Assembly (NCBI GenBank): GCA_948442015.1
Contig: CAOJRP010000001.1
Location: forward strand, 29,617 to 93,616
Source of the DNA: an uncultured Erysipelotrichaceae bacterium
GTDB taxonomy: Bacteria > Bacillota_I > Bacilli_A > RF39 > UBA660
Direction: 5' to 3'
Length of the DNA stretch: 64,000 nt
Position 1 is the stretch's first letter; each line of letters begins with the position of its first letter. This document shows, piece after piece, positions 21,900 to 58,427 of this stretch. The position numbers were made by a program, and so were the translations under genes. The notes beneath the pieces are model-generated. The model searched no databases, was not told the origin of the DNA, and saw only the letters and a list, made by a program, of their open reading frames with translations.

Positions 21900-24218
21900 T
21901 TACTCATCTTCTGGTTTTATATAAATATATTTCTTTTCCTCACCTAATGTATTATCTTCTATAGAAGTTAATGGGTATGTTATAATTCCAATTTCATCTG
22001 TTGTTTGTTTATCACCATCAACAGCTGGATTAGTAGTTTCTTCTTGTTCTTCTTTTGTTTCTTCAGTAGTAGAAGTATCTTTTAAAAGTGGCGGATTACT
22101 ATCTTCTTCTAAAGAAACAGTTGGTATTTCAGTTGTTTCCTCTTCCTTTAATGGAGTATCAGAAACATCTGGTGTTGGTGCATCTTCAGTAGAACCACTT
22201 GTAACTGTTGTAATATTAATTTTAATATTTATACTATTTTCTCCAGCAATAGAAGTTATTTTAAGTTCAATATTATTTGTTCCACTAACAATTGTAGTTG
22301 TTGTATCAATTGTTGCATCTAATCCAGTAACAGAAATAATACTTTGGAAATTACTATCATTTATAATCGCATCAATAATAGTTATATCACTAATATTTTG
22401 TTCTAATTGTGTCTTTAATCTTTGTACTTTCCATTGTAATGGAAGAGATTTTTGTATTTCATAACTTTCACCATTTATTATTATGTCATATAATCTCGAA
22501 GTAATTTGTATTGCATGATTACTTTCATCATATCTAAAGTAATCACTATTAATCTTCTTAGCCAAATCTTTAACATTATCAATAGTACCATCAAATTGTG
22601 ACTCTAAATAATTTTTAATTGCTACATACTCATTTGATGTACTCTTATACATATAAGCATCTAAATATTTAAAGAATAAAGCATTTATTTCTCCACTACT
22701 TAAGTTTTCATTAAAGAAGTAGAAATTTTTAAGATTATTAGTCATGTTTTTATTATTATAATAAGTCTTAACATAACTTGTAAAATTAGCATCAATAGTA
22801 ATTACATCATGAGTATTTGTATCACTATAACTTAATCCTTCGATAGATGCATATTCACGAGGATTTTCTCTTTTAGCTTCTTCTAAATGTTCTCTTATAA
22901 AAATACTTATTTCTGATGAGTTAACATTACTACTATAAGAATCTAGTAAAGTAATAATTCTCTCTTCTATTGTTTCTGTATTTAATTTCGAAAGTTTAAT
23001 TTTATTTCCTTCAATATAATCTCTTAAATCAAAGTAACGTTTAAATTCGGTCTTAAATGTATCAGTAATAATAAGTTCATTGTATGAAGTATCACTACCA
23101 ATAGTTATACCACTAATTCTAGTTAAATCATTAACAGTTATATTATCTCTATCAGCAGTAAATATAGATATCATATATTCTTCCAATAGATTATCTATTG
23201 TCTTAGTATCATTTAAATAATCTTTTAATGCTTCATTGAAACTCACTTCATTATTATGGATATATTCTTTTAAATACTTAATAAAGCGATTATAAATAGC
23301 TGAATTATTAAATTTTGATAAATAGATACTATTATTTTGTAAAAAATCTTTTCTTAAATCAAAGTAACGTTTAAATTCAGTCTTAAATTCTTCATTAATA
23401 ACTAGCCTATTATATTTAACTAAGTTACTATTTAAAGTAATTCCACTTATCTTTTCTAGGTCATTAACATTTATATTTGTACTAGGAAATATTGAATTTA
23501 AATATTCATCTAATAAACTATCCAAAGTATTTGGAGCAATTAAATAATCTTTTAACGCCTCATTAAAGCTTGTTTCATTATTATGAATATACTCTTTTAA
23601 AAGTTTAACAAAACGATTATAAATATCATTTTGATTACTTTTTATTAAATAAATGTTATTATCTTCTAATTTATCTATTTTATCTTCTAAGTATTTATCA
23701 GTATTAACACTAAATAATCCTGTAGCATATTCATACTCTCTTTCATTAGTGAATTGTTGTTTAACATTGATTGATAAGTTAATAGCATCACCTTTTATTA
23801 CTTTATCAACTGGACAAGTTAAATTAACAATAATACTATTTCCCATCCCTGTTAATGTATTAAAAGAAATACTACTAGCATCAATATTGGCATTACCGTC
23901 AAAGAATGTACTATAGCAACTGGAATCAGGTAAAATTAAGGAATAAGTATCAACTTCATTCTCTTTCATTGAAGAACTACGAACAAAGTTAAACTTATAA
24001 TGAATATTTGTTGCAGTTGAATCATCTTGAACTCCCATACTAGATGATGTGTCGTCAATATAATATCCACCCATTTGATTAAACTTAGCTTTGTACAATA
24101 AAGCATTTTCTTCTTCCTTATAATACTTAGCATCAGATGGAGTATAAGTAAAACTAGCTAATAGACATATAACAAGTAAAGTATATAAAATAAGTTTTAT
24201 ACGTGTTTTATTTTTCAT
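21900..24218 (-). CDS. Large secreted repeat protein (772 aa) with an N-terminal signal peptide, internal ~100-aa duplication and an acidic Thr/Glu-rich C-terminus. Putative SipW-cognate substrate.
   Basis: Signal peptide MKNKTRIKLILYTLLVICLLASFTYTPSDAKYY. Duplicated blocks ...IYNRF(V/I)K(L/Y)LKEYIHNNE(T/V)SFNEALKDYL... and FKTEFKRYFDLR. No LPXTG. Confidence 0.6.
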   Translation of the reverse strand: MKNKTRIKLILYTLLVICLLASFTYTPSDAKYYKEEENALLYKAKFNQMGGYYIDDTSSSMGVQDDSTATNIHYKFNFVRSSSMKENEVDTYSLILPDSSCYSTFFDGNANIDASSISFNTLTGMGNSIIVNLTCPVDKVIKGDAINLSINVKQQFTNEREYEYATGLFSVNTDKYLEDKIDKLEDNNIYLIKSNQNDIYNRFVKLLKEYIHNNETSFNEALKDYLIAPNTLDSLLDEYLNSIFPSTNINVNDLEKISGITLNSNLVKYNRLVINEEFKTEFKRYFDLRKDFLQNNSIYLSKFNNSAIYNRFIKYLKEYIHNNEVSFNEALKDYLNDTKTIDNLLEEYMISIFTADRDNITVNDLTRISGITIGSDTSYNELIITDTFKTEFKRYFDLRDYIEGNKIKLSKLNTETIEERIITLLDSYSSNVNSSEISIFIREHLEEAKRENPREYASIEGLSYSDTNTHDVITIDANFTSYVKTYYNNKNMTNNLKNFYFFNENLSSGEINALFFKYLDAYMYKSTSNEYVAIKNYLESQFDGTIDNVKDLAKKINSDYFRYDESNHAIQITSRLYDIIINGESYEIQKSLPLQWKVQRLKTQLEQNISDITIIDAIINDSNFQSIISVTGLDATIDTTTTIVSGTNNIELKITSIAGENSINIKINITTVTSGSTEDAPTPDVSDTPLKEEETTEIPTVSLEEDSNPPLLKDTSTTEETKEEQEETTNPAVDGDKQTTDEIGIITYPLTSIEDNTLGEEKKYIYIKPEDE

Positions 24219-37374: not shown

Positions 37375-38225
37375 TTCATTCCCACCTTCATTCCAAGTAA
37401 CCTAGCTAGCATATCAAAAGGATATCTAAATAAAAGGAAAAATCTTTTTTCTTGCCATATTCTTTTGAAAATATAAAAAGCTAAGTCTTTACCGCTGTCT
37501 GTAGTACCATATCGATTTAAATAGCTATTTTCTTTAAAAAACTTACCGGTAAGTTTATATCTATCATAAATTTGCTTTAAAGTAAATTTATGAGAATGGA
37601 TGACTTCGGAATCAGCACAATATTTTATTTTATAACCAGCCATTATAACTTTGTAAGCAAAATACATATCTTCACTTATAGATAAATTTTTATTATCATA
37701 CCCTTTTAATTTTACAAAGACATCTTTTAAAATAGCCGAAGATGCATCGCTAAAAAAGAAAGTTCTCAATCCCAATTTTTCAATATCCTTTTTAGAAACA
37801 ACACTTGATTTATTAGGATAATTTTTTTCTCTGGTATATTTTTCTATATTATTATATTTTGGTAATTGCCTTGAATAACTTGCTACAACCTCTTCGTTAA
37901 GAGGTGAAACTAAATTATAAAGCCAGTCATCTCTTTTTATTATAACATCTTGGGTTACGAAGACTAATACATCTGCTTTACTTAAAAAAGCCTCTTTTTC
38001 TCTCACTAAGCTATGAGAAAAGTCTTTTTTAGCAATTTTTTTATATTTAATGTTATTTTTTATTAGTAAATTCTCCGTATTATCTGTACTTTCTGTTAAT
38101 ATATATCTAATATTTTCAAGAGTAACATTTTTTTGCCTAAGAAACGAATTATGTAAATTTATGATGTATTCTTCAGCATTATAAAGAGGACAAATAATAT
38201 CTATCGTTTTTTTCTTCATAAACAC
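37371..38225 (-). CDS. Glycosyltransferase family 2
   Basis: N-terminal IDIICPLYNAEEYI (GT-A Rossmann start). The likely true start is MKKKTIDII. Confidence 0.6.
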   Translation of the reverse strand: MFMKKKTIDIICPLYNAEEYIINLHNSFLRQKNVTLENIRYILTESTDNTENLLIKNNIKYKKIAKKDFSHSLVREKEAFLSKADVLVFVTQDVIIKRDDWLYNLVSPLNEEVVASYSRQLPKYNNIEKYTREKNYPNKSSVVSKKDIEKLGLRTFFFSDASSAILKDVFVKLKGYDNKNLSISEDMYFAYKVIMAGYKIKYCADSEVIHSHKFTLKQIYDRYKLTGKFFKENSYLNRYGTTDSGKDLAFYIFKRIWQEKRFFLLFRYPFDMLARLLGMKVGMK

Positions 38226-38294: not shown

Positions 38295-39272
38295 TTACCT
38301 TTCTCCCTCTTCTAACATAGTCACTATACTAATTCCGTATCCTTTTTTGACATCATCGACAATTACATGAGTAACTGCTCCGATAATTTTATCATCTTGA
38401 ATGATTGGACTTCCACTCATTCCTTGGACAACCCCACCTGTCGCATTTAACAGCTCTTCATCAATAATTTCAAAATAGAAATTTTTGATTTTACTATCTT
38501 TATCTATTTTAGAAATATTAATTTTATATTCCTTTTCAGCACTTCCATTTAAAACAGTATAAATACTAGCTTCTCCAAGTTCTACTTCGGAAATATTTGC
38601 CACTTTCTTAGAATCTTTTGAAGGTAAATTACTACTATAAAGTCCAAATATTCCCGAACTAGTGTTTTTAGTTACTGTACCTAGTTCCGTATTATAATCT
38701 ATTTTAGCTTTCTTAGAACCTGGAACTCCATCGGTACTTTTAACAATTTTTACCACTTCACTATCAAAAATATTCCCTGTTTTAACTTCAATTCTTTTAT
38801 TTGTATTACTTTCTAATATTTCATGGCCTAAAGCACCATATATTTTACTTTCTGGGTCAATATATGTAAGGGTACCTATTCCATTTAAGCTATCTTTAAC
38901 ATATAAACCTGTCTTATAAATTCCATCAAATAAAGATACTTCTAACTCTGTTTTATATTCTTTATTATCTTTTACAAAAGTTACTTCAACTATATTATTT
39001 TTAATATTTTTATCTATTGCAGTAACAAGTTCATTAACTGTATTAACACTCTCATTACCAATTTTAATAATACTATCTCCAGCTTCTAAATTAGTTTTTG
39101 GATATTCCCCATTAACTTTATAGAAACCGACAACCATAATACCTTTATTATATACCTCTATACCAATATTTTCGCCCCCAGGGATTATATAATTAGAATA
39201 AGCTAGTACTTGTAAAGGCATTAAAAATGTCAATAAACTAAATATTATAAATCTCTTTTTCATCATTACCAC
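38295..39272 (-). CDS. spoIVB: SpoIVB-like S55 serine peptidase (signal peptide + PDZ + peptidase)
   Basis: PDZ (GDSIIKIGNESVNTVNELV), then GTLTYIDPESKIYGALGHEI and catalytic GMSGSPII. Position after nusB-xseA-xseB mirrors the B. subtilis spoIVB neighbourhood. Confidence 0.65.
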   Translation of the reverse strand: MVMMKKRFIIFSLLTFLMPLQVLAYSNYIIPGGENIGIEVYNKGIMVVGFYKVNGEYPKTNLEAGDSIIKIGNESVNTVNELVTAIDKNIKNNIVEVTFVKDNKEYKTELEVSLFDGIYKTGLYVKDSLNGIGTLTYIDPESKIYGALGHEILESNTNKRIEVKTGNIFDSEVVKIVKSTDGVPGSKKAKIDYNTELGTVTKNTSSGIFGLYSSNLPSKDSKKVANISEVELGEASIYTVLNGSAEKEYKINISKIDKDSKIKNFYFEIIDEELLNATGGVVQGMSGSPIIQDDKIIGAVTHVIVDDVKKGYGISIVTMLEEGER

Positions 39273-44672: not shown

Positions 44673-47203
44673 TACTTATCTAGCTCCTTAAGTTCATAAA
44701 GTAAATTAATCGCCTCCATTGGAGTTATCTTTAATGGGTCAATATCTTTTAGTTTTGTCAAGACTTTATTTTCTTCCTCGACCTCAAAATCAAAAGATAC
44801 TTGAACACCACTACTTGTATTAATCTTGTCATTATCTTCATATATTTTTAATATTTCATTACTTCTTTTCAGTAAACTATCAGGCATTCCAGCAAGTCGT
44901 GCTACATGGATTCCATAGCTTTTGTCAACTGGGCCATCTTTTACTTGATGTAAAAAAGTAACTTTTCCATCTTGCTCTTTAGCTTCCACATGAACATTTT
45001 TAATACTCTTAAAGTTATCACTCAAACTCGTTAATTCATGGTAATGAGTACTAAACAAAGTCTTACATTTTATAAATGTATTAATATATTCCAAAATTGC
45101 TTGTGCAAGTGATATTCCATCATAAGTAGCAGTACCTCTTCCTAATTCATCAAATAAAATTAAACTTTTCTCTGTCGCATTACAAATTGCATTTTTAGCT
45201 TCTTTCATTTCCACCATAAAAGTGGATTCCCCAGAAACTAAATCATCTGATGCACCAATACGGGTAAATATTTGGTCAAATAAAGGCATTGTACATTTCT
45301 TCGCTGGAACAAAAGAACCTATTTGCGCCATAATAATTGTTATCGCTAACTGTCTCATATAAGTCGATTTACCACTCATATTAGGACCAGTTATTAAAAG
45401 GGTATTTACTTCTTCATTCATTATAATATCATTAGCAATATAATCATCTTTTATTACTTTTTCAACTACTGGATGTCTTCCTTCGATGATTTCTAGCTTT
45501 CTTTCTTTAATAATTTCTGGTCTAACTAAATTGTATTCCTCGGCACATACTGCTAAACTAGTAATAGCATCTAATTCACTAATTATTTCAGCTACTTCTT
45601 TAAGTTTAATAATTTTCTTTTTTATACTCTCTTTTACTTCGTTAAATAAATTAAATTCTAATTCAATAATCTTTTCTTCGGCATTTAAAATTAAAGCTTC
45701 TTTTTCTTTTAAAGCAGGACTAATAAATCTCTCATAATTAGTTAGAGTCTGTCTTCGCTCATATCCAAAAGATGGGTCAACTAAATGAGCTTGGCCTTTA
45801 CTAATTTCAATATAGTATCCAAATACTTTGGTATAACCAACTTTTAAAGTTTTAATACCTGTTCTTTTTCTTTCTTCCTCTTCTAAAGCCGCAATAAAGT
45901 CTTTGCCGCCACTGCGAATTTTTTTAAGTTCATCTAATTCACTATTATAGCCATCTTTAATTAAATATCCTTCTTTTAAGCCGATAGGAGGTTCTTCATA
46001 AATAGCATTATCAAGTAATTTGTATAAATCTTTAAATTCTTCAACTTCGTAAGGAAATCCTAACTTTTGAACATTTTTATTAATACTAGGTAAATAGATA
46101 AGAGATTTCTTTATTTGTAAGACGTCTCTTGCGTTTAGTACACCACATACTACTTTTCCACATAATCTTTCTAAATCGTATACTTCGTTTAAATCACTTC
46201 TTAACTCATCTAAAATAATAAACTCTTCATTAAGTTTCGTAATCATATCATATCTTTTAGTAATTGTTTGTTCATCTTTTAAGGGATTTAATATCCAATT
46301 TTTTAATTTTCTGCTTCCCATGGAAGTTTTACATTTATCTAAAAGCCAGACTAAACTATAGGTTCTTTCTTTGAGTCTTAATGTTTCAACTAATTCTAAA
46401 TTTCTAATAGTATGAATATCCATTCTTAAATAATCATCAGGATTAACGATAATTGCTTCTTTAATATGTTCTAATTCTTTTAATTGTTTAACTACTAAAT
46501 AATAAAGTAAATGTTTAATCCCAGTTATAAAACGATAGTCTTTAATATCCTTATAAATATTTTCGTACTTATTTTCTAAATATTCTCTATTTATTGATAC
46601 TTCTAAGCTATAGGCATTTTTTAAAAGACCTATGAGTTCTAAATCACCTTCGTCACTTAATACAACCTCTTTAATTCCTAAAGATAAGATTTTATTAATT
46701 AATTTTTCTTTATTATAAGTTAATTCCATTAAGAATAAGTCCCCTGTTGAAATATCCGCATAAGTTAAAATATAACTAGTTTTAAAATCTAGCACTGATG
46801 CTATGTAATTAGAGTCTTGGGAATTTAACATGTCATAATCAACTATTGTACCTTTACTATAAAGAGCTACAACGCCTCTTTTAACCATTCCCTTAGAATT
46901 TTTAGGATCTTCTAATTGCTCACATATAGCTACTTTATATCCCTTGCTTATTAATTTTTCAATATATGGCTTAACACTATGATAAGGAACTCCACACATT
47001 GGAACTTTTTCTTCTAATCCAGCATTTTTCCCAGTTAAAGTTAATTCTAATTCCCTACTACATAAAATTCCGTCTTCAAAAAATAACTCATAAAAATCTC
47101 CTAAACGATAAAATAATAATTCATCTTCATGTTCATCTTTAATTTCCATGTACTGCTTCATTCCAGGACTTAATTTTGTTCTATCTACTTCGTTTCTTTT
47201 CAT
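44672..47203 (-). CDS. mutS: DNA mismatch repair protein MutS
   Basis: Walker A GPNMSGKST, the mismatch-binding N-terminal domain, and the C-terminal HTH STHYHEL. 843 aa. Confidence 0.9.
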   Translation of the reverse strand: MKRNEVDRTKLSPGMKQYMEIKDEHEDELLFYRLGDFYELFFEDGILCSRELELTLTGKNAGLEEKVPMCGVPYHSVKPYIEKLISKGYKVAICEQLEDPKNSKGMVKRGVVALYSKGTIVDYDMLNSQDSNYIASVLDFKTSYILTYADISTGDLFLMELTYNKEKLINKILSLGIKEVVLSDEGDLELIGLLKNAYSLEVSINREYLENKYENIYKDIKDYRFITGIKHLLYYLVVKQLKELEHIKEAIIVNPDDYLRMDIHTIRNLELVETLRLKERTYSLVWLLDKCKTSMGSRKLKNWILNPLKDEQTITKRYDMITKLNEEFIILDELRSDLNEVYDLERLCGKVVCGVLNARDVLQIKKSLIYLPSINKNVQKLGFPYEVEEFKDLYKLLDNAIYEEPPIGLKEGYLIKDGYNSELDELKKIRSGGKDFIAALEEEERKRTGIKTLKVGYTKVFGYYIEISKGQAHLVDPSFGYERRQTLTNYERFISPALKEKEALILNAEEKIIELEFNLFNEVKESIKKKIIKLKEVAEIISELDAITSLAVCAEEYNLVRPEIIKERKLEIIEGRHPVVEKVIKDDYIANDIIMNEEVNTLLITGPNMSGKSTYMRQLAITIIMAQIGSFVPAKKCTMPLFDQIFTRIGASDDLVSGESTFMVEMKEAKNAICNATEKSLILFDELGRGTATYDGISLAQAILEYINTFIKCKTLFSTHYHELTSLSDNFKSIKNVHVEAKEQDGKVTFLHQVKDGPVDKSYGIHVARLAGMPDSLLKRSNEILKIYEDNDKINTSSGVQVSFDFEVEEENKVLTKLKDIDPLKITPMEAINLLYELKELDK

Positions 47204-47899
47204 AATACATCACTTTTACTATTATAACAGATTTAAAAAGAAAAAGTAGTTATTTTGTATTTATTGTTAATTTTGATAATGATATCCCATTTTAATATAA
47301 ATTTTGATTTGAATATCTAATTCTATTTTTTTTTATAATAATTACACATATTTGTTAATTGCCAATAGGTAATAATTGATATGCTTACTAGCAAATGGTT
47401 TCATTGTAATCCTTTGCAAGTCATATATCATATTATTAGGATCCTGTTGTCAATTGTAAATTCTTCTTAATGTTTTCAACAATTACTTAGTTATTTCAAA
47501 ACGGAATTTCCATTCGGGGATTTCCTCTTCAAAATTAACCTATTTTGTATTTATGCTACTGTTTCCTTGCTATATTCATCACATTTTTCTACTAACAATT
47601 TAAAATTACAACATCCTTCTAAAAACACTTGAATCAAGTGTTTTATCCATATATTTATCATATAATTTTTTATCACAATCACATAAAGTTTCTTTATTAC
47701 GATTTAACCAAATACATATAGTTATTAATTTCAAACAATACTCCAACAAAAGTTCTTATTCTTTTTTCCATAACATCAACTTTATTTTTGTATTAAATGT
47801 TAAGTAAAATTGTACCAATCTTTATATTTGTTTTTAAAAACAGCATTTAATAAAGTTTTTATACCATCATTCCCATATTGAAGAATATTTATTTATTAT

Positions 47900-48796
47900 C
47901 TATTCTATCTCATAAGCTGTACTTTCACTTTTGCCATCACCATTTTTTAGCTTAATATCTGATTTTAATGTTATTATTGGTCTTAAAGAAGCAAGACCAT
48001 TCATTTCAACTAAAGAACCATCATCATCGAATCTAAGCATTAGATATCCGCATTCTATACATGTGCTTCCTATTTCATTACCAATGCCAGCTATCCAATA
48101 CTGGCCCAAAGGTCCTTCCCGAAGACCTCCCCAGTATCTTAAATTTTTTCCTGATTTTGGATTAGTTAGATAAGTTCCAAAGACTTTATTTATGAGACTA
48201 AGATCCTCCGAAGGAAATTCATATTTTTGGCAATCTTCTTCTTGATAACTTTTACAATGTTCTTCCTGTCCCTGATAACTAATATATCTTGTTTTAAAAA
48301 CATATTTAGAGTTACTATAAGAAGATGCTAAGATTTTCAACGCACCAATATAGTTCGTGTAACCCACAACACCATAAAAATATATACCATCTTCCGAAGA
48401 ATAAACCGATACTGCATCTACCGTTCCATCTTCATTTTTCTTTATTACTCGCCATATATTAAGTTCACTTGGATTTATTGTTTGATCACTAGTATACCCT
48501 GTTAAATCTTTAGATATGGTATAACTTGTACTTGTTGGGGTCATTCTTATGTAATCTCCTAGTTCTACTTTATCTGATAAAGCTACTGGTGCTGTATAAC
48601 AATATTGTCCTTCTGGACATTTCCCTGTTTTATTATATAACTCATCTAGCGAATCTTTGACATTTGTTTTACTAGTCTTATCACTACTATATGTTATATC
48701 CTTACTATTAAATATTGTTGTTGCTCCCACTGTCGTACTTATTCCGATTATTATTCCTATTATTACTCCTATTATTTGCTTTATTCTTTTTTTCAT
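47900..48796 (-). CDS. Putative phase-variable surface protein, paralog A (298 aa)
   Basis: The N-terminal 60 aa are identical or near-identical to paralogs B and C (MKKRIKQIIGVIIGIIIGISTTVGATTIFNSKDITYSSDKT...KTGKCPEGQYC). Conserved C-terminal tail ...LKNGDGKSESTAYEIE. RBS GGAGG. Confidence 0.65.
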   Translation of the reverse strand: MKKRIKQIIGVIIGIIIGISTTVGATTIFNSKDITYSSDKTSKTNVKDSLDELYNKTGKCPEGQYCYTAPVALSDKVELGDYIRMTPTSTSYTISKDLTGYTSDQTINPSELNIWRVIKKNEDGTVDAVSVYSSEDGIYFYGVVGYTNYIGALKILASSYSNSKYVFKTRYISYQGQEEHCKSYQEEDCQKYEFPSEDLSLINKVFGTYLTNPKSGKNLRYWGGLREGPLGQYWIAGIGNEIGSTCIECGYLMLRFDDDGSLVEMNGLASLRPIITLKSDIKLKNGDGKSESTAYEIE

Positions 48797-48832
48797 ATAA
48801 TTCTATCCTCCATTTTTTCTATTGTTGATAAC

Positions 48833-48860
48833 ATTATACCCCCCCCGACCTTTCGGTCAA
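48833..48860 (-). promoter_or_regulatory. Promoter of paralog A with a G8 tract in the -35/-10 spacer
   Basis: Coding strand reads ccccTTGACCgaaaggtcGGGGGGGGTATAATg. Spacer 16 nt. Confidence 0.55.
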
Positions 48861-49109
48861 GGGGTAAGATAGAAAGTTAACGTCAAATGAAAAAAAGAAT
48901 TGGCGAACAATTAAATTCCTGATTATTCACCACTCTCTAAATTACCTTTTATTTAATTCTTTTGACTAAATTCTAAATAGTAAGATATAAAGTACTTGAT
49001 TTTTTTATTTCTAAATATTAATAAATATTTCTTTTTATCATTGCAATAATATGTTCTTAAAATTAGTCAAATCATAAAATTTTCACATATTGTAATGAAG
49101 AATAAACTT

Positions 49110-49328
49110 TTACTTTAAAGTTTCTAAAACATTATTAATTAAATCAATATTGTCAATAGCATCGCTTATCTTATCAGTTGCCCTTAAACGATACTTTTCT
49201 TTAACAAAATTAGTAAAAGATTTCAAATCATTATCCCTATTTATTTGTTTAATAAAGAAACTATTTTCTTTCAAATAATTATAGTAGTTTTTTTTACTTT
49301 TTAAATACAATAACAATTCTCTATTCAT
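49110..49328 (-). CDS. Hypothetical small protein
   Basis: 72-aa ORF. Confidence 0.35.
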   Translation of the reverse strand: MNRELLLYLKSKKNYYNYLKENSFFIKQINRDNDLKSFTNFVKEKYRLRATDKISDAIDNIDLINNVLETLK

Positions 49329-49330
49329 AA

Positions 49331-49669
49331 TTAATCCTTAAAAAAGTTCGTAATCGGTCTTGGTACTTTTGGAGTAGCAGCAGTAATATTTGTTGGTTCT
49401 TTTTTCGTTAATTCACTTATTACATCAATAGCTTTTTGGGCATTATCAATATGTCCTTTTAAAGCATCAACATCAATGCTTTTCAAATTTTCCATAATAC
49501 TAAGTTCTTTTTTATTTTTTTCCGGATATTTTTTCCAAACTTCATCATCTTCCCCATATATATCATACATTTCATAAAGTTGCTGCCACGTAGTCTCACC
49601 ACTATTAACATAATCAACTAAATTTCTATGATTTTTAGCAAACTCTTTAAATTCATCTTTTTTACTCAT
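49331..49669 (-). CDS. Hypothetical protein
   Basis: 112-aa ORF downstream of parC. Confidence 0.4.
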   Translation of the reverse strand: MSKKDEFKEFAKNHRNLVDYVNSGETTWQQLYEMYDIYGEDDEVWKKYPEKNKKELSIMENLKSIDVDALKGHIDNAQKAIDVISELTKKEPTNITAATPKVPRPITNFFKD

Positions 49670-49715
49670 AAAAAATCACCTATTATACTTTATGTTAAAT
49701 AGGTGTTTTTTAATA

Positions 49716-52256
49716 TTATAATTTAAAATCATCAATAAAGTCATCGATAGTCATTTCTTTAGGGTCTTCCTGTTTTTCATCCTGTTTTACTACTTTTTCT
49801 TCTTTTTTATTTAAATAACTTACTAAATCGACTTTCACAAAAGAGCCATCAATATCATATTTGGAAATAGAAGAACCATTACTTTGTAAATCCATTATTG
49901 GAAGTTCACTATTCTTTTCTTCTCTTATTTCACTATCAGCCTTGATACAAATTAATGATTTACCATTAGTAACATAAGCACTTAAGACATTATAATCATT
50001 AGTCTTAACTTTCTTCATAATTCTAGAACCTTTTTTTGCTCTTGAAGTTATTTCTAAGTCACTTATTTTAACTCTTTTAGCAGTTCTCAAATTTGTAAAA
50101 ATATTTAAATACTCATCCATTTCATCAATTACAACTCCACTAATTACTTCATCATCTTTTAAGTTAATTGCTTTAACTCCACTTGCTTTTATACCAACTA
50201 AAGGTATTTCACTACTATTAAATCTTAAGAAATAACCTGTCTTAGAAATACAAATAACTTCTTTTTTCTCAAGTGATACTGATACTACTTCATCATTTTC
50301 TTTTAGTTTAAAAGCAGTCATCGGCTTAGTATAACGACTTACTTCAAAGTCTTTTAACACACTTCTCTTAGCTAAACCATTCTTCGTAAATAAAACTACA
50401 TTATCTTCTTTATTTTTATAAACAATTGAAGCAATAATTTTTTCCTCAGGAGATATCCCTATAACGTTATTAATGTGTTTTCCAAGTTCTTTCCATTTAG
50501 CTTCAGGTATGGCATGAACTGGTACAAATAAGTATCGACCTAAATTTGTAAATAATAAAATTGTATCTAGGGTACTTAGTTCATATAAACCAATTAGATA
50601 ATCTCCTGGTTTTATAGTAGTTTCTTCTTCTTTTGATGCTTGATATGATTTTGAGCTAACTCTTTTAACATATCCTTCATTAGTTACTACGACAACAACA
50701 TTTTCACGTGGTATCATTGCTTCAGCATCAATCTTAATTTCTGTTATTTCTTCTTTAATCACTGACCTTCTTGGGTTACCATACTCTTTCTTAATTTTCT
50801 TTAGTTCATCTTTAAATACTTTAATTAAGACTGTTTCATCATTTAGAATACTTTCTAAGAAAGCGATAATCTTTTGTAAATCTTTCAATCTATTTTCTAA
50901 CTCGATAACATCAAAATTAGTTAAACGATAAAGTTGTAAATTAACAATAGCTTCCGCTTGTTCTTCCGTAAACTTAAATTCTTTAACCAAATTAACTTTA
51001 GCATCAGCTTTATTTTTACTTGCTCTAATTACTCTAATAACATCATCTAAAATAGATAAAGCTTTTACTAGTCCTTCTGTGATATGAAACTCTTTATTAG
51101 CTGTATCTAAATCAAACTTGGTTTTTCTTGTAATTACTTCTTTTTGATGAGCAATATAAGCATCTAACATTGGTAGAACACCAAGAAGTTTTGGCCTTCT
51201 ATTTACAATAGCTACCATATTAAAGTTATAAGAGATTTGCATATCCGTATTTTTAAGTAAATAATTTAAAATTAAATCAGCATTAGCCCCACTTTTTAAA
51301 TCAATAACAATCCTTAAACCATCAGCACCCGTTTCGTTTCTTGTCTCCGCTATACCATCAATCTTTTTATCAATCCTAATATCTTCGATTTTCTTGACTA
51401 TTTGAGAGATTGTCACTTCATAGGGAATTTCTGTGATGACTATTGATTGCTTTCCTTTATTTTTAACTATCTCATATTTAGAAACAATATTTATTTTACC
51501 TTTACCAGTCTCATAAGCTTGTTTAATTCCTGCTATTCCTTCAACAGTACCACCAGTTGGAAAATCAGGTCCTTTTAATATTTCCATAATGGTATCTAAT
51601 TTACAATTTGGACTATCAAGTCTTTTGATTGTTGCATCTATTACTTCTTCTAAATTGTGAGGTGGAATATTAGTAGCATAACCAGCACTAATTCCAGTAG
51701 TACCATTAACTAGTAAGTTAGGATATTTCGAAGGAAGTACTGTTGGTTCTAGCCTCGAATCATCAAATGTTGGTGCCATTTCAACAGCATTTTTTTCAAT
51801 ATCTTTTAAAAGTTCATTACTAATTTTCGAAAGTTTTGCTTCGGTATAACGATAAGCAGCAGCACAGTCCCCATCAATAGAACCATTATTACCTTGAATA
51901 ACAATATATGGCTCTCTTTGTTTCCAATTCTGACTCATACGAACCATCGCATCATAAACCGAAGTATCGCCATGAGGATGATATTTACCAATAACTTCTC
52001 CAACTGTTTGAGCAGATTTTACCGTCTTCTTTTCAAAAGTATTCTTATTTTTATACATTGCATATAAAATTCTTCTTTGAACTGGTTTTAAACCATCTCT
52101 TACATCAGGAATTGCTCGATCTTGAATAATATATTTAGAATATTTACCAAACCGATCTCCCATGATCTCTTCAAGACTATATTCTTGTATTCTTTTTATT
52201 ACATCTTCCATAGTGTTCACCATAAAAAGTATAACATAAAAAAAAGATGGAAACAA
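49716..52256 (-). CDS. parC: DNA topoisomerase IV subunit A (type IIA topoisomerase A subunit; no GyrA-box seen)
   Basis: PDVRDGLKPVQRRILYAMY plus the active-site Tyr region. No QRRGGKG GyrA-box is visible in the C-terminal domain. It lies downstream of a GyrB/ParE-type gene and is not in a dnaA-gyrB-gyrA context. Confidence 0.65.
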   Translation of the reverse strand: MFPSFFYVILFMVNTMEDVIKRIQEYSLEEIMGDRFGKYSKYIIQDRAIPDVRDGLKPVQRRILYAMYKNKNTFEKKTVKSAQTVGEVIGKYHPHGDTSVYDAMVRMSQNWKQREPYIVIQGNNGSIDGDCAAAYRYTEAKLSKISNELLKDIEKNAVEMAPTFDDSRLEPTVLPSKYPNLLVNGTTGISAGYATNIPPHNLEEVIDATIKRLDSPNCKLDTIMEILKGPDFPTGGTVEGIAGIKQAYETGKGKINIVSKYEIVKNKGKQSIVITEIPYEVTISQIVKKIEDIRIDKKIDGIAETRNETGADGLRIVIDLKSGANADLILNYLLKNTDMQISYNFNMVAIVNRRPKLLGVLPMLDAYIAHQKEVITRKTKFDLDTANKEFHITEGLVKALSILDDVIRVIRASKNKADAKVNLVKEFKFTEEQAEAIVNLQLYRLTNFDVIELENRLKDLQKIIAFLESILNDETVLIKVFKDELKKIKKEYGNPRRSVIKEEITEIKIDAEAMIPRENVVVVVTNEGYVKRVSSKSYQASKEEETTIKPGDYLIGLYELSTLDTILLFTNLGRYLFVPVHAIPEAKWKELGKHINNVIGISPEEKIIASIVYKNKEDNVVLFTKNGLAKRSVLKDFEVSRYTKPMTAFKLKENDEVVSVSLEKKEVICISKTGYFLRFNSSEIPLVGIKASGVKAINLKDDEVISGVVIDEMDEYLNIFTNLRTAKRVKISDLEITSRAKKGSRIMKKVKTNDYNVLSAYVTNGKSLICIKADSEIREEKNSELPIMDLQSNGSSISKYDIDGSFVKVDLVSYLNKKEEKVVKQDEKQEDPKEMTIDDFIDDFKL

Positions 52257-52286
52257 ATTTAGTTGACACCCTTTTAGTAAAATTTT

Positions 52287-53264
52287 TTACTTTTCAATTA
52301 CATACTTCCATATATTATTATGATAATCCATTATAAAAGTAAAGACATTATCTTTTGATACTAAAGTAATTGAAAGTTCGTATTTATCACGAAGAGTAAT
52401 AAAATCATCAACAGCATTAACTTCAATAATTTTTTTATTTTTAAAACTTGGAAACTCATAAACGACTTCAATTAATTCATCATAATCACGAAGTAATTTT
52501 ATAACTTTCTTATATTCTCGACGATAATTATTCTTAGTATTAGGATTTAAAAGAAAAACGATAAAAGCACAAATTAAAATGAAACCAGACAATGAAGTCA
52601 TGATGATTGCTAAAGCAAAAAGCTTTTTATTTTTAATTAAGTCTTCTTTTATTCCTATTAAAAAGTTTTTTTCTTTCAATTCACTTTTTGTAATAACAAT
52701 ATTATCAGCTAAAAGAGGTATTTTTACTTTAGAAGTACTATTAATCTTAAGTTTTTCGTTAAAATCATAAGATATAGTATTCGTATTTAAAGATATTTCT
52801 AAATAAGCATCTATTTTACTTAAATCTTGTTTATTTAGCTTTTCTTTAACTATTTTATTAAATTCTTCATAATTAACGTTTAAGGCTTCGTTTATTTCAT
52901 AAGTTGCTGTATCTACTTCCCCTATTTTCTTTGATGGCGTTAAAACAATTTGATTATAATACATATTTTTATCAGTCTCTTTATTTCTAGCTACTACTGC
53001 TGCTGTAATGTCATAATCATAGTCAAAAGAAATCTTTTTGGAACTAAGAAAATTATAATTAAAGTTAATATTAATATTGCTATCTTCCTTTATTTCATAA
53101 TTTATATAACTATTTTCTCGATATTCTAACAATTTTTCTTTTTTAGCAGTTACTTTTGAAGTACTAATTATAGCCATTATAATGGCAAATAAAAACAGTA
53201 TTATTGAAAAAGTAATCAGTATATCTCTTTTATTAGATTTTTGCTTTTTACTCATTTTAGCCAA
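52287..53264 (-). CDS. Membrane protein of unknown function, inserted between parE and parC
   Basis: N-terminal TM (ILITFSIILFLFAIIMAIIS) and a second TM near residue 220. Confidence 0.45.
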   Translation of the reverse strand: MAKMSKKQKSNKRDILITFSIILFLFAIIMAIISTSKVTAKKEKLLEYRENSYINYEIKEDSNININFNYNFLSSKKISFDYDYDITAAVVARNKETDKNMYYNQIVLTPSKKIGEVDTATYEINEALNVNYEEFNKIVKEKLNKQDLSKIDAYLEISLNTNTISYDFNEKLKINSTSKVKIPLLADNIVITKSELKEKNFLIGIKEDLIKNKKLFALAIIMTSLSGFILICAFIVFLLNPNTKNNYRREYKKVIKLLRDYDELIEVVYEFPSFKNKKIIEVNAVDDFITLRDKYELSITLVSKDNVFTFIMDYHNNIWKYVIEK

Positions 53265-53314
53265 CTCCTATAGTATAAATTATAGCATAGACATTTAAAA
53301 AGAAAAACTACGAA

Positions 53315-55249
53315 TTATATTTCGTAATCATCCTCTAAAGAAAACTCAACATTTTCATTAATCCATTCTTTTCTTGGTTCGACTTGTTCACCCATTAAAA
53401 TTTGAACTCTTTTTTCAGCTAAGGCCGCATCAGTAATATTTACTTTAATTAAAGTTCTATGTTCTGGGTCCATAGTAGTAATTTTTAGCTCTTCTGGATC
53501 CATTTCACCTAATCCTTTAAAACGTTTAATTTCATAACCACTTTTACCATTAGTAAACTCTTGCACTTCGGAAGTATCCCAAAAATAAGTTCTTTTTTTA
53601 TCTTTTTCTTCAACTAAAAATAATGGTGGCTGAGCAACAAAGAGTTTTCCAGCCTCAATCAAGCCTTTCATATAACGATAGAAAAAAGTTATAAGTAAAC
53701 ACTGAATATGAGCTCCATCTTGGTCAGCATCAGTAAGAATAATAACTTTATCAAAATTGGAGTCATTTGCATCAAAATCAGCACCATATCCGGCTCCAAC
53801 AATATGAATAATTGTATTTATTTCTTCGTTTTTTAAAACTTCACTAATATTTGTCTTTTCAGCATTTAATACTTTTCCTCTTAGTGGAAGTAAGGCTTGA
53901 AAGCGATAATCTCTTGCTTGTTTGGCACTTCCTAGTGCTGAATCCCCTTCAACTAAAAATAGTTCGTTAGTTTTCGGATTTTTATAACCTGCGGGGACAA
54001 ATTTACCAGACATATTCTTTTCTAAAGCTTTCTTTGATTTACCATTACGTGCTTCTTCTCGCGCTTTCCTTGCCGCTTCTCTAGCTACTTTACTTTTAGT
54101 GGCTTTATCAATAATATTTAAAGCAATCTCTTTATTTTCTTCTAAAAAGAATTGTAAGTTTTCATAAACAACTTGTTCTGTTACTGGTCTTGCTTCTGGG
54201 GTACCTAATTTTCCCTTCGTTTGTCCTTCAAATTGTAACAAAGCTTCTGGCACTTTCAAGTTGATAACTGCTGTTAAGCCTTCTCTTACATCACTTCCGT
54301 CAAAACCTTCTTTTCCTTTAATTAAGCCATTTGTTTTAGCATAATCATTGAAAGCTTTTGTCAATCCCGTTTTAAAACCAACTTCATGAGTACCACCATC
54401 ACTTGTTTTAACATTATTAACAAAAGATAAGATATTTTCACTATATCCTTCTTGATATTGGAGAGCTACAGAAACTTCTATTCCTTGTTTACCACCATTA
54501 AAATTAATTACTTTATGAAGCGGATTTTTACCTTCATTAATAAATTCAACAAAGCTCGTTAAGCCATTTTCATAATGAAATTTAGCACTTTTTCCATCTT
54601 CTTCATCAATTACTTCGATAGTTAAACCACTAAGTAAAAAGGCACTCTCTTGCATTCTTTCACAGATTGTTGTATAGGAAAAATGACATCCTTTAAAAAT
54701 ATCAAAGTTCGGCATAAAAGTAACAATCGTTCCAGTTTTAGTTGATTTACCAATCGTTTTTAAAGGGGATTCAACAACTCCACCATCTTTAAAGCGAATA
54801 TTACTAATTAATCCATCTCGATAGATAATAACATCCATACTTGTACTTAAGGCATTAACAACCGAACCACCAACACCATGAAGTCCTCCTGATACTTTAT
54901 AGTTACCTTCTTCAAATTTACCACCAGCATGGAGTACTGTATAAATTACTTCGGGAGCACTCTTACCACTTTTATGCATACCAATAGGTACACCACGACC
55001 ATTATCAGCAATTGTAATACTACCATTTTTATTTAATACAATTTTAATGTAATCTCCATAACCATTTATTACTTCATCAATTGAATTATCAACTATTTCC
55101 CAAACCAAATGATGGAGACCTCTTTTATCAGTTGAACCAATATACATACCTGGTCTTTTTCTTACTGCTTCTAAGCCTTCTAATATTGTTATTGCATCAG
55201 CATCATATTTTTTTGTTGCCATACTATTCACCTTATAAAAGTATATCAT
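53315..55249 (-). CDS. parE: DNA topoisomerase IV subunit B (GHKL ATPase plus TOPRIM)
   Basis: ILEGLEAVRKRPGMYIGSTD...LHHLVWEIVDNSIDE...EGDSA. About 640 aa. The true start is probably MATKKYD at 55222. Confidence 0.65.
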   Translation of the reverse strand: MIYFYKVNSMATKKYDADAITILEGLEAVRKRPGMYIGSTDKRGLHHLVWEIVDNSIDEVINGYGDYIKIVLNKNGSITIADNGRGVPIGMHKSGKSAPEVIYTVLHAGGKFEEGNYKVSGGLHGVGGSVVNALSTSMDVIIYRDGLISNIRFKDGGVVESPLKTIGKSTKTGTIVTFMPNFDIFKGCHFSYTTICERMQESAFLLSGLTIEVIDEEDGKSAKFHYENGLTSFVEFINEGKNPLHKVINFNGGKQGIEVSVALQYQEGYSENILSFVNNVKTSDGGTHEVGFKTGLTKAFNDYAKTNGLIKGKEGFDGSDVREGLTAVINLKVPEALLQFEGQTKGKLGTPEARPVTEQVVYENLQFFLEENKEIALNIIDKATKSKVAREAARKAREEARNGKSKKALEKNMSGKFVPAGYKNPKTNELFLVEGDSALGSAKQARDYRFQALLPLRGKVLNAEKTNISEVLKNEEINTIIHIVGAGYGADFDANDSNFDKVIILTDADQDGAHIQCLLITFFYRYMKGLIEAGKLFVAQPPLFLVEEKDKKRTYFWDTSEVQEFTNGKSGYEIKRFKGLGEMDPEELKITTMDPEHRTLIKVNITDAALAEKRVQILMGEQVEPRKEWINENVEFSLEDDYEI

Positions 55250-55284
55250 ATAAATTAAAAAGCAAGCAAGTCTTTACATTTGCT

Positions 55285-56181
55285 TTACTCTAAAGTGTAC
55301 GCAGTTTCCGCACTTTTTCCATCGCCACTTGCTATTTTTACACTTGATTTGATAGTTAGTATTGGACGATAAACCATATCGAGAAGACTTTCTGTACCAT
55401 TATATTGATTTTGTAAACTGTGAGTAACAGTGTATCTACCGCTAATATCAACAAATCTTACATCATACCCTGTCCATGGATCATCAGTTCTATATCCTCT
55501 AGAAGATATCATATAGTAATTGTTAGAGTTATTACCCCCACTAACCCTTTCAGCTTTTAGCGTTCCTAGAGCATTTTCTACTAAACTAACATCAGTTTCA
55601 GCTCCTGTGTCTACTGGACAAGCTGTATCAGAAAATTCGCTACAATACTCTATTTGATTACTATAACCAATATGTCTTGTACTTTGGATATATTTATCAT
55701 TTGTATGGGCTGCTGCTACTTTATTTAAAATTCCTATATAATTCATATAGCCAATTTTTCCATATATTTGAATTCCAACTCTTGATGTATAATGCGATAT
55801 CATTTCTACTGTTCCATTTTCATTCTTCTTTATTACTCGCCACAAATTTAGTTCACTTGGATTTATTGTTTGATCACTAGTATATCCCGTTAAACTCTTT
55901 GAAACTGTATAAATTGTACTTGTTGGGGTCATACTGATATAATCTCCTATTTCTACAATTGATAACGGCATACTTTTTCCGAAACAATATTGTCCTTCTG
56001 GACATTTCCCTGTTTTATTATATAACTCATCTAATGAATCTTTGACATTTGTTTTTGTTGTTTTATCACTACTATATGTTATATCCTTACTATTAAATAT
56101 TGTTGTTGCTCCCACTGTTGTACTTATTCCAATTATTATTCCTATTATTACTCCTATTATTTGCTTTATTCTTTTTTTCAT
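55285..56181 (-). CDS. Putative phase-variable surface protein, paralog B (298 aa)
   Basis: Same N-terminus and C-terminal tail (...IASGDGKSAETAYTLE) as A and C, with a divergent middle. Confidence 0.65.
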   Translation of the reverse strand: MKKRIKQIIGVIIGIIIGISTTVGATTIFNSKDITYSSDKTTKTNVKDSLDELYNKTGKCPEGQYCFGKSMPLSIVEIGDYISMTPTSTIYTVSKSLTGYTSDQTINPSELNLWRVIKKNENGTVEMISHYTSRVGIQIYGKIGYMNYIGILNKVAAAHTNDKYIQSTRHIGYSNQIEYCSEFSDTACPVDTGAETDVSLVENALGTLKAERVSGGNNSNNYYMISSRGYRTDDPWTGYDVRFVDISGRYTVTHSLQNQYNGTESLLDMVYRPILTIKSSVKIASGDGKSAETAYTLE

Positions 56182-56218
56182 ATAATTCTATCCTCCATTT
56201 TTTCTTATTGTTGATAAA

Positions 56219-56246
56219 ATTATACCCCCCCCAACCTTTCGGTCAA
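56219..56246 (-). promoter_or_regulatory. Promoter of paralog B with a G8 tract in the -35/-10 spacer
   Basis: Coding strand reads ccccTTGACCgaaaggttGGGGGGGGTATAATt. Spacer 16 nt. Confidence 0.55.
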
Positions 56247-56303
56247 GGGGTAAGATAGAAAATTAACGTCAAATGAAAAAAGCTCATATTTTTCTACCGA
56301 GCT

Positions 56304-57239
56304 CTAATCTAATATATAGGCTGTACTTTCACTTTTTCCATCACCATTCTTTAATTTTACGCTAGATTCCAATGTCAAAACGGGTCTTATACCACCTTCC
56401 ATCCTTCTGTCAACTAACTCACCATCTACCAACTTCATAGCCATATACCCACAATGAGTGCACGAAGAACCCCCATCGCCACCAAGAGTTTCGAGAGTGT
56501 AGGCGAATTGACCTGGTCCCCAATCATTTTCCCCAAGATAACCACGACGTATAGAGTGCCAATATCGTTGCATCGTTCCTGACATAGTCGTAGCAATTAC
56601 CGAACCAAATATTTTATTAACAAGTTTAAAGTCTTCTCCTTCTAGAGAGTCCTTTGGACATGAACTCTCTTCATAACTTGTACAATATTCCATTTGATTT
56701 TTATATCCTATATTTCTTGTTCTTGCTACATATTTTTCGTTTGTGTATTGTGCAGCTATTATATTTAATACTCCAATAGCATTTAAATATCCTACTTTTC
56801 CTCTTAAATATATCCTATTACTAGATGCATAAACTGATATTACATCTACTGTTCCATCTTCATTCTTTCTTATTACTCGCCATAAGTTTAGTTCACTTGG
56901 ATTGAGTGTATTTTGAGTACAATTGGCATCATTCATACACCCTGTTAATTCTCCTGGTGGTGTATAGCTTGTACTTGTTGGGGTCATTCTTATGTAATCT
57001 CCTAGTTCTACTTTATCTGATAAAGCTACTGGTGCTGTATAACAATATTGGCCTTTTGGACATTTCCCTGTTTTATTATATAACTCATCTAATGAATCTT
57101 TGACATTTGTTTTTGTTGTTTTATCACTACTATATGTTATATCCTTACTATTAAATATTGTTGTTGCTCCCACTGTTGTACTTATTCCAATTATTATTCC
57201 TATTATTACTCCTATTATTTGCTTTATTCTTTTTTTCAT
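56304..57239 (-). CDS. Putative phase-variable surface protein, paralog C (311 aa)
   Basis: Same N-terminus. The middle block is identical to A (YTAPVALSDKVELGDYIRMTPTSTSYT). The 3' end of the reading frame (5' region of the gene) is identical to B at DNA level. C-terminal tail ...LKNGDGKSESTAYILD. Confidence 0.65.
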   Translation of the reverse strand: MKKRIKQIIGVIIGIIIGISTTVGATTIFNSKDITYSSDKTTKTNVKDSLDELYNKTGKCPKGQYCYTAPVALSDKVELGDYIRMTPTSTSYTPPGELTGCMNDANCTQNTLNPSELNLWRVIRKNEDGTVDVISVYASSNRIYLRGKVGYLNAIGVLNIIAAQYTNEKYVARTRNIGYKNQMEYCTSYEESSCPKDSLEGEDFKLVNKIFGSVIATTMSGTMQRYWHSIRRGYLGENDWGPGQFAYTLETLGGDGGSSCTHCGYMAMKLVDGELVDRRMEGGIRPVLTLESSVKLKNGDGKSESTAYILD

Positions 57240-57276
57240 ATAATTCTATCCTCCATTTTTTCTTATTGTTGATAAA

Positions 57277-57303
57277 ATTATACCCCCCCGACCTTTCGGT
57301 CAA
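57277..57303 (-). promoter_or_regulatory. Promoter of paralog C with a G7 tract in the -35/-10 spacer
   Basis: Coding strand reads ccccTTGACCgaaaggtcGGGGGGGTATAATt. Spacer 15 nt. Confidence 0.55.
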
Positions 57304-57767
57304 GGGGTAAAAAAAGAATAGTGATGCTTGTCAAGATATAATTACAAAAAAGTATAAAGCAAAAAAGATTTTAAAGATAATCAAAAATTTAAAAAAATAA
57401 TAGCAAATAAAGTTTACCTTTATTTGTAGGAATATTATTATTTATAATAACATCTCTATGATTCGAAGTAATTTGAGGGTTTTCTTTTCATAAACACATT
57501 TCCTTTAAATCCCCCTGAAGTTAAGTTTTTTCCAAAACCCTTGAGTAATCAAAGGCAAAACTGATACACTGCTTGTGTCTTAGACCGTACTATAACACAT
57601 GAAAAATAGCTTGTAAAATCACTATTTTTAGATTATTGAGACAAAAAAAGACAATAATCTTATTATTGCTTAGCAAAAATACAATTATTGTTTTAATATT
57701 TTGAGAATAATCCGAAAATTGGCAAATTCACTAAATTTTTAATTTAATGTCAAAATGTGTAAATAAA

Positions 57768-58427
57768 TTATTTTATTGAACTTTTCCTTACTATATATAT
57801 TTTCTTACACTTATAAAAAGCATAAAAAACATCTTTAACATCTAAGCCCTTACTACTTAATTTAGATAGTAACCACATTTTACTTTTCTTAATATTTCTT
57901 AAAGTACTTGTTTGTATTTGTCCATCTAAAACTAAAGGCATAGGATAAGCACTTCTAATTCTAAAAGGGTTATATTTAAAAATAGATAGTTTTCCATTAG
58001 GTTCTAAAAAAGCATATTCCACTTCTTCTAAGCTTTTTACTTCTTTTTGTCTTAAACTCATTAATAAGTCATCCATATTATATCTTTGCTTCGTTATTTC
58101 ACTATAATTTATTTTTCCATTACAAATAATAAGTGATGGTTTACCGCCAAAGATAGTTCGAAACTTTCTTGACTTAACAGCAATAAAAGCTAGAATTAAT
58201 TCAAGTATTACTAAAAGAGCAATTGGTACTACTGTAAGTAATAGAGAATCATTGATATTTTCAATTGAAATAGCTACTAATTCAGCTATTAAAATACTAA
58301 CTATTAAATCAATAATTCCTAATTGGCCAATCTCTCTTTTACCCATAATTCGATAAGATAAAACAATAAAGAAGTAGAAAAACAAAGTTTTTAAAATTAC
58401 AACAATTAAATCATGCATATTATTCAC
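57768..58427 (-). CDS. DUF421 (YetF/YdfS-like) membrane protein
   Basis: YRIMGKREIGQLGIIDLIVSILIAELVAI plus the C-terminal soluble domain typical of DUF421. Confidence 0.6.
   Translation of the reverse strand: MNNMHDLIVVILKTLFFYFFIVLSYRIMGKREIGQLGIIDLIVSILIAELVAISIENINDSLLLTVVPIALLVILELILAFIAVKSRKFRTIFGGKPSLIICNGKINYSEITKQRYNMDDLLMSLRQKEVKSLEEVEYAFLEPNGKLSIFKYNPFRIRSAYPMPLVLDGQIQTSTLRNIKKSKMWLLSKLSSKGLDVKDVFYAFYKCKKIYIVRKSSIK

Follow-up and report, generated by a model that had tools for sequence, protein, structure and literature searches.

Gene organization of the locus

The stretch of DNA analyzed here (the window) comprises 64,000 nucleotides of contig CAOJRP010000001.1 from an uncultured Erysipelotrichaceae bacterium, and it contains three paralogous open reading frames (ORFs), all on the reverse strand, namely A (positions 47900-48796, 298 amino acids), B (55285-56181, 298 amino acids), and C (56304-57239, 311 amino acids). 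The product of A consists of an N-terminal signal/anchor, a Cys-loop linker, and an uncharacterised extracellular domain of ~230 amino acids. B and C lie in tandem, while A is found 6.5 kb away, past parE, a membrane-protein gene, parC, and ylbD, and is followed by mutS. A previous sequence-only reading of this region had proposed that the three genes exchange sequence by ongoing gene conversion. Here we report that their promoters and 5' coding regions form a mosaic, whose structure supports an origin by recombination between paralogs. All sequences used are consensus short-read metagenome assemblies, i.e., the window and a set of other contigs named L001-L017.

Each gene is preceded by a near-identical module of ~100 bp (ACCCCTTGACCGAAAGGT[C/T]-G7/8-TATAAT, then ~36 nt, GGAGG, and the ATG), in which a poly-G tract is located between the -35 and -10 boxes of the gene's own promoter (TTGACC-GAAAGGT[C/T]-G7/8-TATAAT) in all three cases. 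The module of A (48797-48895, reverse strand as for the other two) contains the -35 box TTGACC at 48860-48855, poly-G8 at 48846-48839, the -10 box TATAAT at 48838-48833, and a GGAGG ribosome-binding site. That of B (56182-56281) has the -35 box at 56246-56241, poly-G8 at 56232-56225, and the -10 box at 56224-56219, and its upstream edge overlaps the terminator of C, whereas that of C (57240-57310) has the -35 box at 57303-57298, poly-G7 at 57289-57283, and the -10 box at 57282-57277, with homology to the A and B modules ending at 57310. The putative terminator of C is a hairpin of the intrinsic type followed by a T-run (AGCTCGG...GAGCT TTTTTT; 56275-56303, reverse strand), placed directly after the stop codon, and the same hairpin/T-run junction as between C and B recurs between the tandem paralogs of L003. 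No further copies or fragments of these genes were detected in the 64-kb window by tblastn with 59 family members, in agreement with a repeat scan.

Mosaic structure of A, B, and C

The three genes and their upstream regions were aligned with MAFFT and each site was coded by its pattern, identities being given as matches over aligned positions. The closest pair changes repeatedly along the alignment. In the 29 bp upstream of the module, A and B agree at 28 of 29 positions and C is only 48% identical to either of them. Over the module and codons 1-66, the closest pair is B and C (195/197, compared with 189/197 for A-B and 187/197 for A-C), but over codons 67-93 it is A and C (78/79, compared with 74% for A-B and 72% for B-C), and over codons 93-112 A approaches B (80%, with 64% for A-C and 55% for B-C). 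No pair stands out in the conserved island NPSELN.WRVI (87%, 88%, and 88% for A-B, A-C, and B-C, respectively), in the rest of the gene (41-52%, 51-56%, and 35-59%), or in the last 75 nt (61%, 73%, and 65%).

Two of these relationships are accompanied by long runs of exact identity. B and C share 233 bp (55999-56231 and 57057-57289, reverse strand) covering the poly-G tract, the -10 box, the 5' untranslated region (UTR), and codons 1-61, which is longer than the 180 bp recognized earlier. As also noted earlier, A departs from both in that stretch: over the module and codons 1-61 there are 10 differences, consisting of eight coding substitutions, one UTR substitution, and one UTR indel. A and C share an exact block of 83 bp (48525-48607 and 56968-57050, reverse strand; codons 63-90) encoding CYTAPVALSDKVELGDYIRMTPTSTS, where B is 72-74% identical, and if this run is extended in the 5' direction to 48648/57091, the two genes match at 122 of 124 positions. 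The block had been placed at 48490-48610; the block itself is real, but this span reaches ~35 bp too far in the 3' direction, where A and C diverge. Segment III (codons 93-112) corresponds to 48475-48518 in A (ISKDLTGYTSDQ), 55863-55906 in B, and 56903-56961 in C, all on the reverse strand, and in C it carries a 15-nt insertion (PPGELTGCMNDANCTQN). The adjoining island NPSELN.WRVIKKNEDGT (48415-48474 in A, reverse strand), with 87-88% identity in all three pairs, marks where the mosaic zone ends on the 3' side and is a likely recombination anchor.

Thus, in addition to the two shared blocks described before, the mosaic includes the upstream 29 bp (A=B) and codons 93-112 (A close to B). The earlier description of conserved ends with a patchwork middle needs to be modified: conservation holds for the 5' end but not for the 3' end, where the last 75 nt are only 61-73% identical, and the patchwork exists but occupies the 5' third (from the promoter to approximately codon 125), as no piecewise mosaic is present in the 3' variable domain. 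Divergence is far from uniform along the genes, since exact runs of 83 and 233 bp stand beside segments of 55-74% identity. The 79 informative sites form 25 pattern runs, the longest comprising 20 sites, and neither value was reached in 20,000 shuffles of site order (p<5e-5).

Synonymous divergence (dS), calculated for each segment by the Nei-Gojobori method, follows the same course. For codons 1-66 it is 0.18 (A-B), 0.21 (A-C), and 0.025 (B-C); for codons 67-93, 0.54, 0.11, and 0.54; and from codon 131 to the end, 1.27, saturated, and 1.77, which means that synonymous divergence between B and C shifts more than 50-fold along a single gene pair. These values bear on the possibility that there was no recombination at all, that is, that the genes arose by a recent triplication, that their 3' parts diverged rapidly under positive selection, and that purifying selection on the promoter, signal peptide, or mRNA kept the 5' parts constant. 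The 5' end does contain clear functional elements, and positive selection does act, since differences between strains in the 3' domain are all non-synonymous (16, and 0 synonymous). However, purifying selection on the protein is insufficient because it cannot erase synonymous differences, and the same gene pair is saturated at synonymous sites in its 3' part and nearly unchanged in its 5' part. Moreover, successive 5' segments show incompatible pairings, and four-gamete violations extend across the family. We therefore regard this scenario as exceedingly improbable. As no single duplication history yields affinity of B with C, then of A with C, and then of A with B, exchange between copies is required. 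Recombination between the paralogous cassettes, as the sequence-only reading had supposed, is the only explanation that fits both the incompatible segment pairings and the jump in dS, and the view that the mosaic arose in this way is well supported by these comparisons. We infer that the exchange would have been intragenomic and of the RecA type.

Mosaicism across the wider gene family

Outside this locus, the same strain or close relatives of it carry at least eight further distinct paralogs at no fewer than two loci (L003 and L014-L017). Two of these loci again carry tandem paralogs (four genes in L003/L004 and at least three in L014-L016) with a poly-G module on each copy, and the single-gene contig L017 also has the module. 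For analysis of the family, 15 gene copies (11 distinct paralogs plus strain alleles) were aligned over their first 480 nt. With one allele for each of the 11 paralogs, 86 informative biallelic sites gave a Hudson-Kaplan minimum of 27 recombination events (Rm) and a significant PHI-like permutation test (p<2e-4); where columns are more diverged, recurrent mutation may inflate the Rm value. Four haplotypes of segment II (YTAPVAL, FGKSMPL, YTEPLGL, and CVNLKLN) and two types of segment III (PPGELTGCMNDANC and [IV]SK[DS]LTGYTSDQ) were found; their DNA sequences do not differ between copies, and practically all combinations of them are represented. A block table of ~30 proteins from many samples shows that blocks 1-4 (residues 1-185) reassort and that every gene has its own version of block 5 (residues 186-285); therefore, conversion homogenises and reshuffles the 5' part while the C-terminal domain stays gene-specific.

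Repeats of this kind can also generate mosaics artificially, if the assembler switches between paralogs inside shared repeats and thereby produces chimeric genes. Five contigs (L001, L008, L009, L010, and L015) end in or beside family genes, which indicates that the repeats disturb assembly, and the L015 gene equals a gene on another contig of the same sample. On the other hand, the same structures of A, B, and C were recovered in independent assemblies from different samples: the B protein is identical in four of them (the window, L008, L009, and L010), the C protein is 100% identical in the window, L001, and L002 (with three near-identical partial copies), and near-identical A alleles are present in L008 and L009. 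The block pattern is also repeated across the ~30 family proteins from many samples. An assembly artefact is thus a very improbable source of the mosaic. The tendency of contigs to break at such loci, and their possible chimerism there, is a warning for the interpretation of metagenome-assembled genomes (MAGs).

Gene content at these sites also changes. L014 (15819-16751) and L015 (7086-8015) are identical for 7 kb, after which the 3' two-thirds of one paralog differs, the L015 version being that of L003:6274-7203 at another locus; either a whole cassette has been replaced or the assembly is chimeric. In the closely related MAG CAOJBM01 (L005:5150-6882), the interval from the DUF421 gene to parE, which in the window is occupied by C and B, holds a single family member. 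This copy lacks the poly-G module, is preceded by a small ORF whose anchor motif is similar, and seems to be frameshifted in a T-run close to its start. In L012, the position that corresponds to A by synteny, downstream of ylbD and a 72-amino-acid ORF, is occupied by a different family member. The single module-less copy of L005 and the different gene of L012 at the A position imply that copy number and gene content turn over at these sites.

Differences between strains

When L001, L008, L009, and L010, which come from four other samples, were aligned to window positions 45801-58000, 38 variable columns were found. The paralog genes and modules (3.05 kb) account for 37 of these and the flanks (9.15 kb) for only one (Fisher p=1e-21). 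The single flank column lies in mutS, and the 7.3 kb from parE to ylbD has none. This comparison of the loci between related strains, which had been suggested as a check, therefore places nearly all variation inside the paralogs.

In the 5' region of A, L008 differs from the window and L009 at eight positions within 166 bp, seven of which are synonymous. The allele of the window and L009 matches the paralog L014:8458, at another locus, exactly over 249 bp, and the L008 allele differs from it there at eight sites, the assemblies being from different samples. Such a pattern has the signature of a conversion tract, which may have been transferred in either direction. All but one of the variant bases of L008 occur in some paralog. 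That two A alleles exist in assemblies with near-identical flanks, one of them matching a distant paralog over 249 bp, lends support to the earlier suggestion that exchange is ongoing.

The 3' domains vary in a different manner. In C, 10 nucleotide changes distinguish five assemblies between 56398 and 56653 (reverse strand), all of them non-synonymous, together with an in-frame deletion of 9 bp, and in A the window differs from L008/L009 between 48072 and 48220 (reverse strand) by six nucleotide changes in five codons, all non-synonymous. The ratio of non-synonymous to synonymous changes is 16:0 in the 3' domains vs 1:8 in the 5' third (Fisher p=8e-6). Change between strains in the 3' domain hence looks like positively selected point mutation rather than conversion, or like replacement of whole cassettes.

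It could also be considered that the blocks were exchanged mainly with imported DNA of other strains, by transformation or phage, rather than by intragenomic conversion. The same block haplotypes occur in related MAGs and other samples, at the same sites related genomes carry different numbers and types of genes, and mixed strains exist within one sample (coverage 40 vs 64). However, exact blocks are common to copies 1 kb and 7.4 kb apart on one contig, ~9 kb of flanks are identical between strains with different alleles, and the ends of imported tracts would need to fall precisely inside the genes every time. We consider predominant import to be rather unlikely, though not negligibly so, and favor conversion between copies of the same genome.

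The promoter module and its poly-G tract

In the G8 copies (A and B), the boxes are arranged as TTGACC-16 nt-TATAAT and agree with the consensus at 11 of 12 positions; no other sequence in the 10-kb stretch matches a promoter better. The G7 tract of C gives a spacer of 15 nt. The -35 box and the G-run together form a 10-bp hairpin with a GAAA tetraloop. Its version in the A module is CCCCTTGACC-GAAA-GGTCGGGGGG (in repeat family D6), and the hairpin CCCCUUGACC GAAA GGUCGGGGGG is located at 57284-57307, 56227-56250, and 48841-48864. It was flagged by a terminator scan for the B and C copies, and the same stem was obtained for A by RNA fold prediction. The poly-G hairpin may act as both terminator and promoter. 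The same hairpin, followed by a T-run, was also observed in the unrelated contig L013.

All of the ~25 modules have a tract of either 7 or 8 G residues, and tract length differs between assemblies at four genes with identical flanks, as read from assembly consensus only. B has G8 in three assemblies (the window, L001, and L008) and G7 in two others (L009 and L010); that of A is G8/G7/G8 among three assemblies; gene 3 of L003 has G7 and its counterpart in L004 G8; and the gene at L014:15819 shows G8/G8/G7. From the resulting spacer lengths, a change between G8 and G7 may alter transcription.

In two JGI contigs (L011:1490-2044 and L012:404-1295), the same module, with TAAAAT as its -10 box, lies in front of family members that differ in architecture and have another N-terminal domain of ~190 amino acids, and a metagenome scan for the module returned three contigs only. 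We tentatively raise the possibility, which we hold to be doubtful at present, that the ~50-bp hairpin/poly-G element (CCCCTTGACC-GAAA-GGTC-Gn-TATAAT) is a portable cassette with a dual purpose, resembling a terminator for the upstream gene and serving as a slippage-controlled promoter for the downstream gene, and that it has spread to several architecturally different surface-protein genes of the lineage. Together with recombination in the adjoining 5' region, it might then permit plug-and-play swapping and switching of a large repertoire of a structurally new binding domain.

The encoded proteins

The core domain of A, B, C, and longer relatives has no match in Pfam or NCBIfam, and a sequence-profile search of PDB also gave no match. 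An AF2 model, built for C only, has pLDDT >90 over residues 70-311, and Foldseek searches with this model returned no significant match in PDB or BFVD; weak Foldseek matches to the C-type-lectin fold (probability <=0.1) were not relied on. A word-indexed search identified 136 relatives, all from metagenomes or MAGs, and a full profile search identified 3,367 cluster representatives at E<1e-3, 466 of them at E<1e-30. The ~230-amino-acid domain is usually C-terminal in proteins of up to 2,000 amino acids, and its partners include pilin N-methyl signals, FN3, Listeria-Bacteroides repeats, LRR, and dockerin. Because of its fusion to such partners the domain should be extracellular, and we infer that the products of A, B, and C are probably surface-exposed binding proteins.

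Genomic surroundings

Rfam and tRNA scans of the window were empty, and no recombinase is present among the neighbors (parE, parC, ylbD, mutS, and the DUF421 gene). Genes for a SpoIVB peptidase (38295-39272) and the YlbD coat protein (49331-49669) occur in the window and SpoIVA is encoded at a second locus (L003:2219-3697). Related MAGs are labeled 'uncultured Tenericutes bacterium', which fits poorly with SpoIVA, SpoIVB, and YlbD; because these proteins are present, the label is doubtful and probably misleading, and they indicate a spore-forming, low-GC Bacillota lineage instead. A probable surface-polysaccharide island of very low GC content (20-22%) is found at 30877-38225, with a polysaccharide flippase-like gene, DUF1919, and three glycosyltransferases. 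Two other ORFs contain internal direct repeats, at 22997-23693 in ORF 21900-24218 (198-210 nt, 73-88% identity) and at 29250-30038 in ORF 28785-30815 (82-89 nt, 76-82% identity), which suggests that they encode repeat-domain proteins.

Interpretation and comparison with known systems

We consider it quite probable that A, B, and C are members of a multi-copy 'contingency' family of complete genes, which encode exported proteins of ~300 amino acids, have their own poly-G promoters, recombine in their 5' parts, and are gene-specific in their 3' domain. Homologous recombination, by gene conversion and probably unequal exchange in tandem arrays, would repeatedly overwrite the promoter and the first ~125 codons, with tract ends falling in short conserved islands. 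In this way, the expression/export module would be kept uniform while two short polymorphic segments (residues ~62-85 and 93-112) would be reshuffled. The C-terminal two-thirds would not undergo piecewise exchange and may change by selected substitutions and indels, possibly also by replacement of whole cassettes.

Several points count against this interpretation. The material is short-read metagenome assembly throughout, and assemblers can jump from one copy to another within repeats of 80-330 bp; the most obvious whole-cassette 'replacement' (L014 vs L015) involves two contigs of one sample and could be a chimera. No one sampled paralog accounts for the L008 allele of A, DNA imported from another strain cannot be separated from intragenomic conversion, and the spacer of the G8 promoters is 16 nt and not the optimum of 17 nt, so that either tract length might be the 'ON' state.

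Three other arrangements were considered and rejected. A silent-cassette system is not compatible with three full-length genes with promoters and the absence of fragments in the 64-kb window. An inversion shufflon (as in vsa, vsp, and vpma) does not agree with copies that all lie on the same strand, have their own promoters, and lack an adjacent recombinase. YW..SR...RP motifs, which are known from targets of diversity-generating retroelements, prompted consideration of such an element, but it was rejected for the window since no 3' region has a second copy there and the substitutions involve all base types and are not adenine-specific.

Independent ON/OFF switching of complete copies combined with recombination is textbook knowledge for pathogens such as Neisseria, Treponema, and Mycoplasma. 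The vlp genes of Mycoplasma hyorhinis, which are complete and clustered, encode surface proteins; their promoters and signal-peptide regions are highly conserved, their 3' coding regions diverge, and a poly-A tract between -35 and -10 switches each gene independently. They generally resemble A, B, and C in the promoter-spacer homopolymer, the conserved 5' ends, and the divergent 3' coding parts. However, Vlp proteins are lipoproteins with tandem-repeat C-termini, whereas the proteins described here have no lipobox and a globular C-terminal domain; in addition, the poly-G tract lies within a 10-bp hairpin, and the host, unlike mycoplasmas, has mutS and sporulation genes.

The opa genes of Neisseria exist as several complete copies, both scattered and in tandem, each of which is phase-variable, and they combine a conserved framework with variable segments in many combinations owing to recombination between loci and strains (PMC4534519). 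The likeness lies in complete, independently variable copies (variability in the present case being read from tract length) and in reassorted variable segments. The differences are that opa genes use CTCTT repeats in the coding leader for translational control, whereas A, B, and C have poly-G in the promoter spacer, that Opa is a beta-barrel outer-membrane protein, whereas here an unrelated domain of ~230 amino acids is exported by a Gram-positive-type spore-former, and that the largest variable domain of A, B, and C is not reassorted piecewise. In Treponema pallidum, phase variation of tpr genes (the subfamily II tprE/G/J operons and tprL) is controlled by a variable poly-G tract in or next to the sigma-70 promoter, located between -35 and -10 in tprL, and gene conversion is known for tprK (PMC3656149). 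Paralogs with conserved ends, promoter poly-G, and gene conversion within the family are thus common to both systems, but Tpr proteins are unrelated spirochaete outer-membrane proteins, and tprK has silent donor cassettes, none of which are found in this window. Segmental gene conversion leading to mosaics between conserved anchors is also shared with pilE/pilS, vlsE, msp2, and tprK; these systems rely on one expression site and promoterless partial donors, whereas A, B, and C are each full-length with a promoter.

What is new here is the protein domain, the hairpin-embedded poly-G module, and the host lineage, while the class of mechanism is already known. Copies that both switch and recombine have hardly been documented in uncultured, spore-forming, low-GC bacteria of the commensal type. 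With more than 3,000 cluster representatives the domain is widespread; it has neither an annotation nor a detected fold relative, and these loci provide a handle for assigning its function. As A, B, and C are essentially the only differing places in 12 kb of otherwise identical strains, and as every change in their variable domains alters the amino-acid sequence, they would appear to be the principal point of contact between the organism and whatever selects on it, for example host immunity, phage, or a binding target.

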